Source: Ostreococcus lucimarinus
Lineage: Eukaryota
Length of the DNA: 64,000 nucleotides
Direction: 5' to 3' (one strand)
Assembly: GCA_000092065.1 (NCBI GenBank)
Contig: CP000583.1
The notes under the pieces were generated by a model. The model had not been told where the DNA came from. It was given only the letters and a program-made list of their open reading frames with translations, and made no database searches. The translations under genes were made by a program, and so were the position numbers. The number at the start of each line of letters is the position of its first letter. Positions within the stretch are counted from its first letter, which is position 1. Below are positions 1,877 to 10,037 of this stretch, piece by piece.

Positions 1877-3472
1877 TCAGAGCTCTGTGACTTTCCAATT
1901 CGTTGGGATCGCGGGCTCGGCGTCGTCATTCTCTCTCCGCGCCGCGACGTCCTCGATGGGCATCTGTTCTCGCCTCACCACTCTCGGTCTTCCAGTTTCT
2001 CTATTCAGTTCGACGCCGAGACTTCTAGAGAGAAGCTCTTCACTTTCTTCTACGGCTTGAGGTTGAAGCTCGGCGATTTTACTGCGCGCCAGCTCACTAC
2101 TTTGCGTTAAGTTTCGCACTGCCCAAAGCGCCCACTCTCGGAGGTACGCCTCGCCTTCTTCGCCTCTCGTATGATTTAACACTATGGGTAATCCTCCCAA
2201 ATTCGCGACATCGTCACAGACACGCGCGCGATTGAACGCTGCGTTTCCAATAATCGCGATCAGGTCGACTCTGTAACCAGACCACGGGACTCGAGACGGA
2301 TACGTGACGTCGCTCTTCAACTCTTCCGGCACGCTTTGCTTGAGCTTCGGAGCGGCGGCGGGTCCCGTTGCCTTACTCGTCTGTCCTATACCTTCTGGTG
2401 CAGGTAACGCCGCGAGAAGCGATAGGGTAAGCCTGACGAGACCCATTGCCGCTAAACACGCGACGGTGTCGCCAGCATGAGGCTTCACCTCGCGCTCACT
2501 CATCGCGCGCAAAATACTCACGCACTCCATGAGTATCGACAGCGCAACTTTTCGCTCATCATCATCTACCGCGGCTTCGAACCGTGCGGCGACGACAGAG
2601 GTGGTATCTAATAGAAACGCTAAAACGCCTTCTGGCATTAAAAGTGGTGGTTGCTCGCCCTCGCGTATCTCGGAGTGAGGAATGTCGACGTACGACGTCG
2701 CATCTTTGTCGTTCAACAATGCAGCAATGAAATGCAGCAAAGTCGCCTGTTCGGACGTAAACACCATCTGAGGTAGATTCGTTTTGTGCGTACTTTCCAT
2801 GACCTCATTCACCCGAGAATCATCTTCGGCGAGCTCGACAAGACGCGCGCGAAGCATGGCCTCATTGAGAGCAGAAATTTCAGCACCGTTCGGCGATAAC
2901 GCGCGGAAAAGTTTTGGTAAACCGCCTCCTTTGCAACATATCGTACGAATCAGCGTCATCAAATGCGTACCACCGCCGACATTCTCGGGTTCTTCAACTT
3001 CTGTTGACGCACGCAATAGCGAGAGCCAAAAACTCTGCGCCATATCCACGACTTTCTCCGCGCGAGCGCCGTCGTGCTTCACGCACGCGTCCACGAATAC
3101 GCACGCCAATCCGTGCGTCTTCGCCCCTCCAATCCCGCGCAGTGAAGTCACGGCTTTGAGTGCATCTTCCATCGCCTCGCACTCCCACGCCTCGGTCAAA
3201 CACTCGCCATCGTCCATCCCCGCGTTGACGACGGTTTGCAACGCGAACATCGCGCACTTCGCCCGCGCCTCCTCCTCCCTCCCACCGCGTGCCTCCATCG
3301 TCCCCATCTCGCGCACGATCTCCATCAACATTCTACATCCCTCGTTTTCCCTCAACCGAGTCGTCTCCGCCGCGTTCCCCGCGCACGCGTTCCGTCCCTC
3401 TCTCGCTTCCTTCGACGCGCCCTCCGCGTCTCGTCCCCGCGCGCGCCTCGCGCACTCAACAACGCTCTCCAT
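1877..3472 (-). CDS. ATXN10: Ataxin-10 homolog (armadillo-type, Atx10homo_assoc-like C-terminus)
   Basis: 531-aa ORF with an ATG at 3472. The C-terminal block YRVDLIAIIGN...GGLPIVLNHT...REWALWAVRNLTQ resembles the conserved ataxin-10 domain. It lies tail-to-tail with the GNAT gene across a 69 bp gap. Confidence 0.5.
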   Translation of the reverse strand: MESVVECARRARGRDAEGASKEAREGRNACAGNAAETTRLRENEGCRMLMEIVREMGTMEARGGREEEARAKCAMFALQTVVNAGMDDGECLTEAWECEAMEDALKAVTSLRGIGGAKTHGLACVFVDACVKHDGARAEKVVDMAQSFWLSLLRASTEVEEPENVGGGTHLMTLIRTICCKGGGLPKLFRALSPNGAEISALNEAMLRARLVELAEDDSRVNEVMESTHKTNLPQMVFTSEQATLLHFIAALLNDKDATSYVDIPHSEIREGEQPPLLMPEGVLAFLLDTTSVVAARFEAAVDDDERKVALSILMECVSILRAMSEREVKPHAGDTVACLAAMGLVRLTLSLLAALPAPEGIGQTSKATGPAAAPKLKQSVPEELKSDVTYPSRVPWSGYRVDLIAIIGNAAFNRARVCDDVANLGGLPIVLNHTRGEEGEAYLREWALWAVRNLTQSSELARSKIAELQPQAVEESEELLSRSLGVELNRETGRPRVVRREQMPIEDVAARRENDDAEPAIPTNWKVTEL

Positions 3473-3843
3473 CTCCCCTCGCCTTCCCTCGGCTCGGTCC
3501 TTGACAGCACAGCAGCAACGTCCACCCTCGCGCCAGGGCGAAGACGCCCGCTTCGCAGTGATTCCTTTCGCGCGCCGCTTTCGTCCCCGCGTGTCGCGGT
3601 TTCACCGGCGCGAATTCCGCGTCGTCCGCCGCGCTCGCGAACGCGCTCGCCGACGCGCTCTCGCTCAGCGCGCTCGCGGACTCGCTCGCGCTCAGCGCCG
3701 GTCCCGTCGTCCCGTCCCGCGCGCTCGATCGAGCGTCGCGCGCGTCGCGCATCGACGACGCGGCGCCGAGTGCCGCCGAGCGACCGCAATCCGCGACGCG
3801 CGGTCGATCGACGCGTCGAGCGCGACGCGCGATGAGCGGGACG

Positions 3844-6194
3844 ATGCGCGTGGCGAACTGCCCGAGTCAGGTGCGCGCGCGCGCGGCGCGCGAGGGCGAG
3901 ACGAGCGCGAGCGAGCGCGATTCGAGATTGCGAATCGAATCGCGCGTCGAATCGTGAAACGATGAAACGACGAAGACTGACGGAGACGCGACGCGCGCGG
4001 GACGCAGGAACTGGCGCTGACGAACTGCGCGTTCGTGAACGATGCCGACGTCGAGGCGTGCGCGCCGTACGTGGAGATTGGCGATTGCGTGTTTTTGACG
4101 CGCGCGAGCGCGGAGGTGGCGCCGGGGGCGGTGGGACTCAACGGCGTGCAGCGAAAACAGCTGCGAGTGAGCACCGGAGACGCGGTGAAGTGGCGAAAGT
4201 ACGAACCGCCGAGCCGAGAGTTCGATTGCGCGGGAATGACGATCGAGTTGGAGTTCACGCGACCGGCGTTAGCGGCGAGTTTGATCGCGAAGAACGCGCA
4301 CGAGGGCGTGGACGCGAATTCGATGACGACGATTTTGCGTAGGACATTTAGCTCGCAGGTGTTCACCGTGGGACAAAAGGCGGCGGTTGAGTACTGTGGG
4401 AATAATTATTTGCTTAGTGTGAATCACGTCGTCGTGGAGGGGGCGAGGGAAGGCGTGACATCGCTGCGAGGGATGTTTACGCCGTCGACGGCCGTCGTGT
4501 ACGAGGCGTCGTCCAATAGCGGTATAAAAATTTTAGGTCAAAAAGCGGCGGTGATGAACACAGGGTTGTTCAAGAGTAAAGATTTTAGTTTTTCCAAGCT
4601 CGGAATCGGGGGTCTGGATCAACAATTCGAGGACATCTTTCGACGAGCGTTTTCGTCGAGAATTTTCCCGCAGAGCGTAGTGCAACGCCTCGGGATCCAA
4701 CACGTCAAAGGTATGCTCCTTCACGGTCCCCCGGGTACGGGCAAAACTCTGATCGCGAGGCAAATCGGGAAAATGTTGAACGGCAAAGAGCCGAAAATCG
4801 TGAACGGGCCGGAGGTAATGTCCAAGTACGTCGGACAATCGGAAGAAAACGTTCGTAAGTTGTTTGAAGACGCCGAAGCCGAGTACAAAGCGCGCGGAGA
4901 CGATAGTGATTTGCACATCATAATCTTCGACGAGATCGATGCGGTGTGTAAATCTCGTGGAAGTGTTTCGAGTGGCACAGGCGTGCACGACTCCATAGTC
5001 AACCAGTTGCTTACGAAGATTGACGGCGTCGACGCGTTGAACAACATCTTGCTCATCGGTATGACGAATAGAAAGGATATGTTGGACGAGGCAATCTTGC
5101 GCCCCGGTCGCTTAGAGGTGCACATCGAAATCGGTTTGCCCGATGAGAACGGACGGATACAGATCTTGAACATTCACTCGAATAAGATGAGTGAAAATGA
5201 GTTTCTCGGCGGCGACGTCGACTTGGCGGAATTGGCCAAGCGCACGGGCAACTTTAGCGGAGCTGAGATTGAAGGCTTGGTGAAATCCGCGGTGTCGTTC
5301 GCGCTGACGAGGCAAGTGGATATGAATGATATCGGTGCACCGATTGACGAAGATAATATCAAAGTCACGATGGCAGATTTCGAGCTCGCGCTGCTCGAGG
5401 TCAAACCAGCGTTTGGGGCGTCGACGGATCTATTCGAACGGTGCATGTTGAATGGAATGATTTCGTACGGAGAAAAGTACGAAAAGCTCGTCTCGACCAT
5501 GGAGTCACTCATCGAGCAAGTCAGGGTGTCGGAGAAGACTCCCATGCTGACGTGCTTGCTCGAAGGTGGCGCCGGGAGTGGAAAAACGGCGCTCGCAGCC
5601 GCGCTCGCGATCAAGTCGCAGTTCCCGTTCACCAAGCTCTTGACCTCAGACGGTTTCGTCGGTGCCTCCGAAGCGGCGAAGTGTCAAGCTCTCGCAAAAT
5701 TGTTCGATGATGCCTACAAGTCGCCGGTCTCGTTGATCGTATTGGACGATATCGAGCGCTTGCTCGAGTACGTCGCCATCGGCCCGCGCTTTAGCAACGT
5801 CGTCTTGCAGGCGCTCTTGGTGTTGCTCAAACGTCAACCCCCACCCGGACGAAAGCTGTTGGTGATCGGTACGACGTCGTTACCACTCGTTTTCGAGGAC
5901 ATGGGTCTCAACGCCGCCTTCAACGTCTCCTTACACGTTCCCGAGTTGAGCCCTAGCGAAACCTCCGCCGTGCTCGCCGAGCTCGGCGCCTTTGACGCCG
6001 TCGATCTTCCGCGGGCGTGTCAAGCGCTCCAAGCCCTCACGGGCGACCGCGTGCCGATTAAGCGATTATTCATGCTTCTCGAGATGGCGCGTCACGGCAA
6101 AGACGATCTCGGCGATTCCATGGACGTCGGCGACGGCCGTCGCGTCGTCGCCCTCGACCGCTGGGTCGCCTGTCTTCGCGATCTCGCGCAGTGA
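3844..6194 (+). CDS. NSF: Vesicle-fusing ATPase NSF. Two exons: 3844..3870 and 4008..6194, with intron 3871..4007
   Basis: The large exon carries the N-domain plus D1 and D2 AAA domains ([26 protein letters not shown], second P-loop GGAGSGKT). The large ORF has no in-frame ATG. A 9-codon micro-exon (MRVANCPSQ) joins to ELALTNCAFVND through a GTGCGC...CTGAC...CAG intron. This reproduces the conserved NSF N-terminus (M..ARCPTDELSLTNCAVVNE). Confidence 0.85.
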
Positions 6195-6585
6195 GCGCGT
6201 CGCGCTCGCGCGCGCCGCGCGTCGCGCGCGTCGTCGCCGCGTCGCGCGCGTCTTAGATCTACTACTTCGTATATATCACAATCAAATCTCGCTCTTCGTC
6301 ACCGCGCGCGTCGCCTCTCGCCTCGCCGCTCGATCACCCATCAATCGCCCCGTCCTCCGCGCTCGCTCACTTCTTCGCCGACGACCGCCCGAACAGCCCG
6401 GTGAATCCGTTGACGACGATCCCGTACGTCAATCCCGCGGTCACCGCGCCGACGCGCAGGAACGCGGCGAGCGAGCTCGTCCCCGAGTACGGCCCACCCA
6501 TCGCGCGCGTCGCAGTGCCGGCACCCAGGCAGGCAGTCGACCGGCGACCAGTGGCCGAATGCTGAACACTTAATACTTTTAATTC

Positions 6586-6690
6586 TCGTCGAGTTTTCTG
6601 CGCATTTACCGTGATTTAGAGCTATGCGTTCAAAACTCGCGAATGCGTTTTGTCCAGCCTGCGCAACGCCGATTTCTTAAACCCTTTTCA
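6586..6690. repeat. Copy A of a duplicated ~80-bp element plus an 18-bp motif (TTCTTAAACCCTTTTCAT)
   Basis: It is near-identical (2 mismatches in ~80 bp) to 7762..7842. The 18-mer recurs at 7726..7743. Both copies sit just 3' of plus-strand genes. Confidence 0.8.
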
Positions 6691-6947
6691 TAAGGAATTT
6701 ACCGTACTGTAATTTACCCCCGGGATCTCGCGGGATGATAGGTATAAATCAATTAATATATGTGGTCATACGGCCAAATAGTGAGGCTCCATATGTCCGA
6801 CCGACCATGTCGACACCCGCGACACCCGTGTCAACACCCGCGAGTATGGGTCCATGTTTGATTTGATTCTCGCGCGGGGTTGGCAGGCAATTCACTCACT
6901 CCTCCACGCGTCCGCGTCAGCAATTCACTCCTCGACGCGTCGCGGCG

Positions 6948-7676
6948 ATGAACGCGTACGACTCCATCGAACGCGGCGCTGCCGACGAGTGCGAACCTTT
7001 AACAGGACGACGACCACGGACGTTTACTCTCACGCAACTGCTCGTCGCGTGCGGCGCCGTGTGCGTCTGTGCGATCGGGGCGACGATGTTCGTGAACACT
7101 CACGCTCAACTGGCCGACGCTGGTTATGGTGGCGACTCGATCCAATCCTCTGGTTGTCCAATTCAAGACTGGGTTGATGATTCTTTGTGCGCGGCGAGTC
7201 CGCCCGGCCTATCCGAGTCTAAAAGCCGAGGTCGCGCGCTGCTTGGCTCGCGAAACACATCAAGTGAAACATCAATTGACACATCAAGTGACACATCAAG
7301 TGAAACATCAATTGACAACACATCAAGTGACACATCAAGTGACACATCATCAGACACATCAAGTTCCAATCAAGTGTCCATTCCGTCGTGCGCAAAAATA
7401 CCGCCGCGTCCGAAATCAAGTGATTCGGTAAGCTGCAACGGCCACGGTTGGTGTCATGAAGGCACAACGGCAAGTGGCAACAAGCCACACTGCGATTGCA
7501 ACGCTGGTTATGGTGGATCTCATTGCGAAACGAAGATTCTGAACCTGGAAGACCTCAGTATCAAAGTCGCCGACATCGAGGAGGAGATGGAGAAAATGGC
7601 TGAATCCGCAGTCGAGACCATCAAACTCGAGGAGCAACCGCTGCTGCACGAGCACGGGCACGAGCATGGGGAATGA
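6948..7676 (+). CDS. Type-II membrane protein with a Ser/Thr-rich tandem-repeat (mucin-like) stalk and an EGF-like Cys domain
   Basis: An N-terminal signal-anchor (LLVACGAVCVCAIGA) is followed by (TSS[DE]TSID)n repeats and a C..C.GHGWC..C.C..GYGG.HC EGF pattern. The C-terminus is acidic with an HEHGHEHGE tail. Confidence 0.55.
   Translation: MNAYDSIERGAADECEPLTGRRPRTFTLTQLLVACGAVCVCAIGATMFVNTHAQLADAGYGGDSIQSSGCPIQDWVDDSLCAASPPGLSESKSRGRALLGSRNTSSETSIDTSSDTSSETSIDNTSSDTSSDTSSDTSSSNQVSIPSCAKIPPRPKSSDSVSCNGHGWCHEGTTASGNKPHCDCNAGYGGSHCETKILNLEDLSIKVADIEEEMEKMAESAVETIKLEEQPLLHEHGHEHGE
7255..7368 (+). repeat. Coding tandem repeat (ACATCAAGTGA[AC]-like 9-12 nt units) encoding the Ser/Thr-rich stalk
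   Basis: Directly visible periodicity within CDS 6948..7676. Confidence 0.8.
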
Positions 7677-7725
7677 CACTACTGAGCGACCCACAATTTC
7701 AAGCAAATTCAAGAATAATTTTCAA

Positions 7726-7842
7726 TTTCTTAAACCCTTTTCATATATATCTTATATATATTTCTTGTCGAGTTTTCTGCGCATTTACCGTGATTTAGAG
7801 CTATGCGTTCGAAACTCGCGAATGCGTTTTGTCCAGCCCGCG
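7726..7842. repeat. Copy B of the duplicated element; here the 18-bp motif is followed by the ~80-bp unit
   Basis: See copy A. The order of motif and unit is swapped relative to copy A, and both copies are in direct orientation. Confidence 0.8.
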
Positions 7843-7912
7843 CACGCCCGCGACTGAAATTTGAAACGTTCGCGACGACGCGCGACGCTGGCGCGAGAGC
7901 GAGACGCGCGAC

Positions 7913-8123
7913 ATGCTGCGCGCGACGCGCGGAGGGATGGCGTGCGCGTCGATGGCGCGCGCGCGGGCCGCGCGGGCCGCGACCCCGACGCCGCGATGCG
8001 TCGCGGCGGCGGCGTTCGGACGCGGACGCGCGGGCGCGGGGAAGGCGATGACGGTGCGCTTCGGCGTCGGGGCGACGCGCCGAGGCGCGGCGCGAGGGAA
8101 GTCCGCGAGCGTGGGCGGTGGGA

Positions 8124-8165
<42 letters not shown>

Positions 8166-8770
8166 GCGACGGCGGTGGCGACGGCGCGGCGGGCGGCGTT
8201 CAAACGTTGTGGGCGGCGTATCTCAACGCGCTCGAAAAGAATCCGTTGGCGACGAAGTGCGCGACGAGTGGGGTGCTGAATGCGTTGGGTGATTTGTTTG
8301 CGCAGTTTTCGTTCGATGACGCCGCGAAGAAGGGGATCGATTGGCGTCGGGCGGGCGTGTTTACGTTTCTCGGCGGCGCGTTGGTTGGACCCGCGCTGCA
8401 CTTTTGGTACGGCACGCTCGGGAAGATTGTCACCGCGCAAGGCAGCGCCAAGGCGTTCATCAGCTTGGTTTTAGATCAAGGTTTGTTCGCGCCGGCGTTT
8501 TTGTGCGTGTTTTTGAGCTCGCTGTTCACGATCGAAGGCAAGGCGAGCGAAATCGTTCCCAAGCTCAAGCAAGATTTTGCGCCGACGGTGATGGCGAACT
8601 GGAACATCTGGATCCCTTTCCAGTTCTTGAATTTCCGTTTCGTTCCGCTGAACTTGCAAGTCGCTGCCGCTAACGTCGTGGCGCTGTTATGGAACACGTA
8701 CCTCTCGTGGGCGTCGCACAAGGAAGTCGTCGTCGAGACGGCGAGCAAAGGAAAGAAGAGTAAGAAGTAG
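7913..8770 (+). CDS. MPV17: Mpv17/PMP22-family membrane protein with an N-terminal presequence and a poly-Gly tract
   Basis: Mpv17/PMP22 signature from LWAAYLNALEKNPL through NWNIWIPFQFLNFRFVP. A (GGC)n microsatellite at 8123..8190 encodes G16. Confidence 0.8.
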
Positions 8771-8831: not shown

Positions 8832-10037
8832 TCAAATCGTCGCCCCCGAACACGAAGACCCCGAGCCCGCGGTGCAGCCGAAACAATGGTTGTCCGCGAC
8901 GATGCGCGAGCCGACCAAGTCGTCGCACGAGTCGAGATCGAAAATTGTCTTCTTCTCATCGCGCACCGGCATGTCGAGTTGTTGGTTGAAGTCGCAGTCG
9001 TACAGCGTTCCATCCCAAGACACGCTGATCAGATCACGGCACATTACCCCCACCGAAGCCGCAACGTTGAAATTTTCGACGAGTAAACTCATGTACTCGC
9101 TCGTCTTGCCCTCGCGATGCAAATAATCGGCAAAGCGCTTGATGGGCATGTTCGTCAACGTGAACAATCGCGAGAATTCCACGCCCCAAGTATCTCTCAA
9201 CTCGCTGCGGTACGCCACCTCTAGGTTTTCTTGCGCCGGTGGCAAGAATGCTCCTCCAGGATTATACATGAGATCGAGCTCGAGCCCCGAGCCTTCGACC
9301 CCGTATCCGACGGCGTTCAAGTCGCGCAACGCCGCGATGGATCTTTCGAACACCCCTTTTCCTCGCTGCGCGTCCGTGTTCGCCTCGCTGTAACATGGTA
9401 ACGAAGCGACTACTTTGACCTTATTTTCTGCCAAAAACTGTGGCAAATCCTCCTGCCCCTCCTCGTACAGCACCGTCAAGTTGCACCTGTCGATGACGTC
9501 GACGCCGAGCGCCCTCGCCTCGCGAACGAGAAATCTAAACTGCTCGTGCAACTCGGGCGCCCCCCCAGTGAGATCCAACGTCTTCACGTTCGAAGAATTT
9601 TTCAGCACGCGCACCACGGCTTGCGCCGTCGCCGCATCCATCACCTCCGTCGTGCGCAACGGCGACGATTCCACGTGACAGTGCGCGCACGCCTGGTTAC
9701 AATACAACCCAATGTTTACTTGTAAAATCGTCGTCGGCTCGCGAATCAGCGCCTTCCCCCCTCGCGTCTCGAGATACGACTCGAACGACGGCACCCCGAT
9801 CGTGTCCAGCGCCCGTCGTCGTCGCGCGCGCTCTTCCTTCGTCAGCGCTTTTTGTCCGAGCGTTTCCAGCCGCGTCTTGGCTGTCTGAAACTCGTCATCC
9901 GTCGCCATTTCTGCGAGCGTTTCGTCGATGATGCTGTCGAAACGGCGCGCGACGCGCGCGGAAGTCGTCGAGAACGTCTGTTTGCGCGTCTTCGCGCGGA
10001 GCGTCGACGGCGCGACCGGCGACGCACGGGCGAGCAT
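8832..10037 (-). CDS. Radical SAM/Cys-rich domain protein (ArsS-like, TIGR04167-type)
   Basis: A CNQACAHC radical-SAM cluster motif, a TIM-barrel region and a C-terminal Cys-rich tail HCFGCTAGSGSSCSGA. There is an ATG at 10037 and the N-terminus resembles a presequence. Confidence 0.6.
   Translation of the reverse strand: MLARASPVAPSTLRAKTRKQTFSTTSARVARRFDSIIDETLAEMATDDEFQTAKTRLETLGQKALTKEERARRRRALDTIGVPSFESYLETRGGKALIREPTTILQVNIGLYCNQACAHCHVESSPLRTTEVMDAATAQAVVRVLKNSSNVKTLDLTGGAPELHEQFRFLVREARALGVDVIDRCNLTVLYEEGQEDLPQFLAENKVKVVASLPCYSEANTDAQRGKGVFERSIAALRDLNAVGYGVEGSGLELDLMYNPGGAFLPPAQENLEVAYRSELRDTWGVEFSRLFTLTNMPIKRFADYLHREGKTSEYMSLLVENFNVAASVGVMCRDLISVSWDGTLYDCDFNQQLDMPVRDEKKTIFDLDSCDDLVGSRIVADNHCFGCTAGSGSSCSGATI

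Follow-up and report, generated by a model that had tools for sequence, protein, structure and literature searches.

A 64,000-nt stretch of Ostreococcus lucimarinus DNA (assembly GCA_000092065.1, contig CP000583.1; hereafter the window, to which all unprefixed positions refer) contains a gene for an EGF-like, mucin-type membrane protein that is enclosed by two direct copies of an 86-nt sequence and, inside these, by two copies of a 21-nt motif (ATTTCTTAAACCCTTTTCATA). The locus is a well-resolved natural instance of a known insertion anatomy, and its footprint is clear but ordinary. We consider it likely that the whole arrangement goes back to an end-joining-like break-repair insertion that duplicated its target and was followed by repeat-mediated changes in copy number. 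The core of the 86-nt repeat, an 84-mer, is native sequence that is single-copy in empty alleles of the locus (L016, L017) and flanks the inserted cassette on both sides in full alleles. The empty site is present in three sister species as well as in alleles A, B and B3 of O. lucimarinus itself, described below, and the junctions are irregular, with ACGCCG at the left edge, TATATCTTATATAT at the right edge and 21 nt from the end of the insert present twice. One candidate listed in a first-pass annotation of this DNA was that the repeats mark a duplication or insertion which had delivered the mucin-like gene, and the absence of the gene from the sister species and from part of the population bears it out.

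A repeat search of the window returned the outer pair as a direct repeat of 86 nt at 95% identity, with a spacing of 1179 nt, which is the sole long non-coding direct repeat at less than 5 kb spacing in the whole window. The first-pass annotation had described a unit of about 80 bp with 2 mismatches and an 18-bp motif, arranged as unit and motif on the left and motif and unit on the right, all in direct orientation, around the mucin-like gene. This arrangement holds, including the position of the gene in the map of open reading frames and landmarks, and both elements could be widened. The two copies of the 80-nt unit differ at just two positions, A/G at 6632/7811 and T/C at 6660/7839, while the 86-nt repeat starts a few bases 5' of it and, if a 1-nt indel is accepted, continues through CGCC (6667-6670 and 7845-7848); the motif belongs to an exact 21-mer which is longer by 1 nt at its 5' end and by 2 nt at its 3' end. 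Allowing up to 3 mismatches, the 86-mer and the 21-mer occur twice each in the window, and neither was matched in 100 dinucleotide-preserving shuffles. A metagenome scan with a 24-nt core of the 86-mer found 7 contigs, all of them from this locus; with two copies in the window and 7 of 7 contigs from one place, the 86-mer is not the common repeat that had been considered as a possibility. The 21-mer and the 86-mer core had no matches in the viral contigs scanned.

The native context of the repeat is seen in the single-copy state, allele A, where the 84-mer is the AT-rich centre of a divergent intergenic region of 224-234 nt. This region separates a gene of 44 codons on the minus strand (MGGPYSGTSSLAAFLRVGAVTAGLTYGIVVNGFTGLFGRSSAKK) from a gene of the Mpv17/PMP22 family on the plus strand, and the 84-mer lies 5' of both. 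The 86-mer is a stretch of this native bidirectional intergenic region, neither a gene nor a dispersed repeat, and from its position we infer that the 84-mer serves as core promoter or 5'-leader sequence for both neighbours. In the window, the ATG of the 44-codon gene faces the left copy, which lies upstream of it at a distance of about 80 nt. The first-pass annotation had placed this copy directly 3' of the plus-strand NSF gene, which is incorrect, as NSF stops at 6194 and the 44-codon gene intervenes. The latter has a syntenic counterpart in each of three other Ostreococcus species, with 72-78% amino acid identity (tblastn), while the intergenic DNA around it cannot be aligned with theirs, and this conservation in unalignable surroundings indicates that the gene is real. 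It has no Pfam family, and it is called in some assemblies only.

The syntenic loci of these three species (L028, L029 and L030/L031) were reached via their Mpv17 homologues, which share 82-89% amino acid identity, and their NSF genes show 76% nucleotide identity. In 3 of 3 the gene order is NSF, 44-aa gene, Mpv17, without an EGF gene in between, which answers the first-pass annotation's question of whether relatives lack the intervening gene; the presence of the EGF gene at this site is therefore the derived state, due to an insertion in the lineage of O. lucimarinus. When the single-copy intergenic region was compared with the sister species by BLAST, the 44-aa gene alone could be aligned and no match to the 84-mer appeared, so that the deeper history of the 84-mer is untraceable.

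We fetched metagenome contigs of the same species by exact match to the EGF, Mpv17 and 44-aa proteins and to the core DNA of the 86-mer, and then mapped the landmarks on them. Exact copies of window proteins occur on many marine metagenome contigs, some of about 0.95 Mb, and at least five structural alleles, differing in the number of 84-mers and in cargo, can be told apart at the locus. Allele A (L016, L017) has one 84-mer and lacks both the 21-mer and the EGF gene. Allele B, also without the gene, consists of two 84-mers separated by (A)CGCCG, the 21-mer and CCC, and was found on 11 contigs (L012 (=L042), L015, L018, L019, L020, L033, L034, L035 (=L043), L044, L046 and L047), with L032 as a partial case. 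Allele B3 (L038, positions 201-510) carries three 84-mers and two spacers that contain the 21-mer and differ by one single-nucleotide polymorphism (SNP). Allele C is the full form of the window and of 13 further contigs (L001-L011, L014 and L037; L013 is the same contig as L003). Finally, allele D (L045, reverse complement, 3309-4624) follows NSF and the 44-aa gene with the left flank, the 84-mer, ACGCCG, the 21-mer and the opening 110 nt of the cassette, with 3 SNPs, and then has a different cargo, a gene for a 216-aa Cys-rich type I membrane protein, followed by the start of a GC-rich gene other than Mpv17; no right junction is reached before the contig ends.

The 84-mers thus stand head-to-tail in one, two or three copies with a period of 113-114 nt. 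Collapse during assembly was considered as the source of the alleles and rejected, since A, B and C are present in MEGAHIT contigs built at k=141, a k greater than the repeat length; the variation in copy number is seen in assemblies made at k=141 (L017, L019) as well as in chromosome-scale (0.95-Mb) and 274-kb contigs (L012, L015, L018, L020), where allele B is also present. Diversity in the flanks is about 0.1% and the haplotypes are shuffled, which fits one recombining species. An analysis of flank haplotypes gave no clean allele-specific clades and does not settle the polarity of B versus C. Each A allele shares its immediate left-flank haplotype with a B allele (L016 with L012, L017 with L015), and this argues for at least two independent contractions to one copy. 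Two contigs show further apparent rearrangements. In L008 (10815-11134) the right 86-mer is followed by ACGCCG, the 21-mer and the start of the cassette again; either the entire 1179-nt unit stands there twice in tandem, or the assembly looped where the contig ends, and the structure is a possible artefact. In L036 (8284-8355) the upstream region of the cassette switches to reverse-complemented 5' sequence of Mpv17 close to a 15-nt inverted repeat (window 6904-6918 and 8019-8033), and this is probably a fold-back assembly chimera.

The edges of the repeats vary among these haplotypes. Upstream of the 84-mer, the TA-rich run differs strongly from one haplotype to another: it is absent or present as TTATATATATATA, TTTACTTTATATATATATA or TTAATACTTTTA. 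The left junction reads ACGCCG, CGCCG or CCGCCG, preceded by A or G as the last base of the repeat, and its CGCC matches the native sequence that follows the right copy. The right junction of the full allele, TATATCTTATATAT, resembles the TA-run found upstream of the left copy in some haplotypes. The right 86-mer itself varies at three sites among full alleles (7766 T/C, 7811 G/A, 7839 C/T). Within the 84-mer (window 6590-6640) there is an imperfect palindrome, CGAGTTTTCTGCGCAT ... ATGCGTTCAAAACTCG, which as RNA is not significantly stable; a protein could bind to it, or replication could stall at it.

The inserted cassette has a GC content of 53%, compared with 58% for the window. It begins with an AT-rich module containing GGTATAAAT, which matches allele D at 97% over 6693-6800 in BLAST and is possibly a promoter module. 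Its sole substantial open reading frame is the EGF-like gene, and no element-encoded transposase, integrase or reverse transcriptase was found in it. The predicted protein has an N-terminal transmembrane segment, a stalk rich in Ser, Thr and Asp, a weak EGF-like domain and an acidic C-terminus; its Pfam scores are below the curated cut-offs (EGF_alliinase 23.6 bits, cut-off 25; EGF_Teneurin 19.2 bits, cut-off 24.3). The stalk is encoded by a 12-nt periodic repeat (window 7242-7376), and the paralogues differ mainly in this block.

Paralogues of the cargo gene occur at no fewer than four other loci, near PFK (L024, L039), in L040, in L041 and in a region of 53% GC (L025-L027). Their homology, at 86-97% nucleotide identity, is limited to window 6890-7648 or to sub-blocks of it and stops short of the cassette ends and of the 21-mer; the cassette is therefore not a mobile element of unit length, and on sequence comparison it appears to be a copy of a family gene plus some private flanking DNA. 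The same pattern gives no support to a classical transposable element, the paralogues at these four or more loci sharing 6890-7648 alone and neither the cassette ends nor the 21-mer. The cassette has no inverted termini and no poly(A) at its 3' end, the gene tables list no recombinase gene in the 10 kb or so to the left and right of the insertion site, although an enzyme encoded elsewhere could act in trans, and a search for flanking direct repeats around five paralogue loci found none that brackets a paralogue. In L040 (2472-2560) an exact but unrelated 38-nt direct duplicate with a 13-nt spacer, containing ATTCTCG, lies upstream of a gene that adjoins an EGF paralogue, and it may be a further small duplication of this general kind close to a promoter.

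The region of 53% GC (L025:1742-4675, L027:3853-6786) holds, within 3 kb, a 213-aa gene that is the closest relative of the Cys-rich gene of allele D (77% nucleotide identity), an EGF-family paralogue of 261 aa, and open reading frames with weak GIY-YIG-like and HNH-like Pfam matches. The cargo may have come from a region of this kind. We also searched viral contigs for relatives of the EGF protein and of the Cys-rich protein of allele D and found none, in a search that detects close relatives only; a direct prasinovirus origin of the cargo is unsupported.

Across 14 full alleles, the 1074 nt bounded by and including the two 21-mers are 100% identical. From the diversity of the flanks about 2.8 segregating sites would be expected and zero were observed (P ~0.06), in a sample of which 10 of the 14 alleles had been retrieved through an exact protein match. 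The invariance of the cassette suggests that the insertion is recent. Recency, or else gene conversion, also accounts for the near-identity of the repeat copies, which in the first-pass annotation implied recent duplication or strong constraint; constraint was not demonstrated.

Table 1. Features of the window at and around the insertion, 5' to 3'.
Feature	Position	Strand	Basis and remarks
NSF	4035-6194	+	Open reading frame and Pfam
Conserved 44-codon gene, left neighbour	6367-6501	-	Open reading frame list and tblastn
TA-rich variable stretch, directly upstream of left 86-mer	6570-6581	+	Junction table, all alleles
Left 86-nt copy (core 84-mer 6582-6665)	6580-6665	+	Repeat search; single-copy in allele A
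Left junction ACGCCG	6666-6671	+	Junction table
Left 21-mer, opening 21 nt of inserted DNA	6672-6692	+	Repeat search; one copy kept in spacer-only alleles
AT-rich 5' module, 131 nt	6672-6802	+	Common to allele D (L045)
Inserted cassette between 21-mers, 1032 nt	6693-7724	+	Absent from alleles A, B, B3 and three sister species
Cargo gene, 242 aa, EGF-like/mucin-type membrane protein	6948-7676	+	Open reading frame list and Pfam
Right 21-mer, exact copy of left; terminal direct repeat of insert	7725-7745	+	Repeat search
TA-rich junction	7746-7759	+	Junction table
Right 86-nt copy, native position, 68 nt upstream of Mpv17 ATG	7759-7844	+	Repeat search
Mpv17/PMP22-family gene, right neighbour	7913-8770	+	Pfam PF04117, 80 bits; syntenic in sister species
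Radical-SAM gene	8832-10037	-	Open reading frame and Pfam

As shown in Table 1, a radical-SAM gene follows on the right; its protein clusters at 90% identity or above with XP_001416889.1 of Ostreococcus lucimarinus CCE9901. The Mpv17/PMP22 gene contains a GGC-rich 9-nt periodic repeat (window 8109-8195) that encodes a poly-Gly tract within the N-terminal part of the protein, a poorly conserved region.

According to the break-repair account, about 1.07 kb of lower-GC DNA would have been inserted into the bidirectional intergenic region in this lineage, carrying an EGF-like mucin-type membrane-protein gene of a multi-locus family together with its own upstream region. Judging from the anatomy, the occasion would have been a chromosomal break that was mended by end-joining-like or fill-in repair. 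The repair would have duplicated some 89-103 bp of target, possibly the TA-run, the 84-mer and CGCC (the upstream TA-run may be included because the right junction is TA-rich), added short junction sequence and left a 21-nt terminal redundancy on the insert. Each flanking gene would keep a complete copy of the promoter region, with the new gene sitting behind the left copy. The nested direct repeats would then make the locus unstable: loss of the cargo would give 84-mer, one 21-mer, 84-mer (allele B), and unequal exchange between 84-mers would give three copies (B3) or one (A), contraction having apparently taken place two or more times. The favoured order would thus be empty, then insertion, then spacer-only. 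Alleles B and C are related by descent, since the left junction and the 21-mer are common to both.

Several observations weigh against this account. The right junctions differ, allele C having the 21-mer, TATATCTTATATAT and ATTTCTTG..., and allele B the 21-mer, CCC and ATTCTCG..., and neither is one clean step from the other. The 30-nt spacer of B, with its one 21-mer, is polymorphic at about 4 sites, as opposed to an invariant cassette, and B could be the older form. An exact, sharp-edged 21-nt repeat, and a left junction that recurs in allele D, would be compatible with a site-specific process as well; neither a donor locus nor the right end of allele D turned up among the contigs, and the promoter function of the 84-mer is read from position only. 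A rival account is the reverse order, in which a tandem duplication of the promoter 84-mer with 25-30 nt of filler (allele B) came first, copy number then varied from 1 to 3, and the cassette entered the spacer later, so that the 21-nt repeat would be its own target-site duplication, the repair chemistry being unchanged. B alleles are the commonest in samples not chosen for the EGF gene, B3 shows the unit behaving as a tandem repeat, the spacer is polymorphic while the cassette is monomorphic, and the edges of the 21-mer are as sharp as those of a target-site duplication, all of which would agree with such an order. It needs, however, CCC-ATTCTC to have been swapped for TATATCTTATATAT-ATTTCTT on insertion, while the TA-rich right junction of C suggests a duplication made straight from an undisrupted haplotype with the TA-run and not from B; also, 21 bp is long as a target-site duplication for any transposase, and the diversity contrast, at P ~0.06, is statistically weak. 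On balance we regard the reverse order as rather unlikely, though deserving of serious attention.

A site-specific process could take the form of a circular cassette of 1053 nt that integrates and excises at the 21-mer, used like the core of a phage attachment (att) site, to give full, spacer-only and D alleles, with a circular junction of the form ...TTTTCA, 21-mer, AGGAATTT... The 21-mer is indeed an exact direct repeat at both ends of the cassette, exactly one is kept in spacer-only alleles, allele D joins the same left junction and 5' module to a different cargo, and the cassette is invariant across different flank haplotypes. But the right junction of allele B is CCC where that of the full allele is TA-rich, which is not what precise excision would leave; the 21-mer is missing from the viral contigs and from the five paralogue loci examined, there is no recombinase gene in or beside the cassette, and the outer 86-nt duplication is left unexplained, which together make this process improbable. 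Equally speculative, and a long shot in our estimation, is that the 21-mer with the adjacent 110-nt module acts as a docking site at which cassettes of surface-protein genes are exchanged by site-specific or homology-guided recombination; its cargoes could be the EGF/mucin-like gene of the window and the Cys-rich membrane-protein gene of allele D. If true, this would be the nuclear counterpart, on a small scale, of cassette systems, and variation of the cell surface against prasinoviruses might result. The first-pass annotation had also proposed that the repeat is a functional module under selection, either a 3'-untranslated region or terminator or a small non-coding RNA gene, here present in two copies. 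The near-identity of the copies and a fold of -24.7 kcal/mol for the palindrome would speak for it. Yet the z-scores of the fold, on both strands of both copies, are merely -1.6 to +0.6 and not significant, Rfam (E up to 10) and ARAGORN returned nothing for the repeats, the sister species have no BLAST match despite the conservation of the adjacent 44-aa gene, and copy number in the population ranges from 1 to 3, so that a small RNA gene finds no backing. Nor does a terminator, as the element is 5' of both neighbours in alleles without the EGF gene and is found at no other 3' ends in the window or in the metagenome scan, which place it at one locus only. We give a selected module hardly any credence.

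Long target duplications upon break-repair insertion are known from the integration of transfer DNA in plants. In O. tauri, the transformant line T3 carries a vector insert flanked by a 518-bp direct target duplication, together with a 62-bp duplication of vector sequence and 83 bp of filler, which the authors attribute to a mechanism like non-homologous end joining (NHEJ) (PMC8002553). The locus described here has the same anatomy, with a direct target duplication of tens to hundreds of bp around the insert, short stretches of junction or filler sequence, duplication of part of the insert, neither terminal inverted repeats nor an element-encoded enzyme, and an existing empty site, and it is this match to the O. 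tauri transformants that leads us to an NHEJ-like insertion. There are also differences: here the event is natural and is segregating among populations in the ocean, what was inserted is an endogenous paralogue and not a vector, the duplication measures about 90-100 bp instead of 518 bp, and the mechanism is deduced from anatomy.

Other known systems show partial likeness. As in minisatellites, or variable number tandem repeats, one, two or three head-to-tail 84-mers coexist in one species and single-copy alleles are nested in two-copy haplotypes; here, however, there are just 1-3 copies, the unit would have been made by an insertion event, and one allele holds a 1-kb gene in its spacer. The direct repeat at both ends of the insert, of which a common allele keeps one between the duplicated target copies, recalls solo long terminal repeats (LTRs), but the repeat is 21 nt and not an LTR, there is no retroelement gene, and the solo right junction is not the one that simple recombination predicts. 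Ostreococcus populations are known to vary in gene content and to carry tandem duplications and translocations, including those of the outlier chromosomes (Blanc-Mathieu et al. 2017, PMC5498103). The locus resembles that variation in that a gene is present or absent within the species and in that members of the cargo family are also found on contigs of lower GC with many genes of unknown function (L025-L027, 53%), and it differs in that the site is a standard, high-GC, syntenic chromosome region.

For the biology of O. lucimarinus, the cargo genes code for membrane proteins of a variable family, whose ectodomains are rich in Ser/Thr or in Cys, and a link to virus-host interaction is so far purely hypothetical. 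The locus offers a natural counterpart of the insertion anatomy that O. tauri shows when transformed in the laboratory, and, as at least five structural alleles are still segregating in the ocean, it is usable as a marker of population structure in this species. It also shows, in a clean case from nature, how a gene can enter a very compact algal genome while the genes beside it stay intact, each of which would retain its complete promoter-region copy because the repair duplicated the shared region at the point of insertion.

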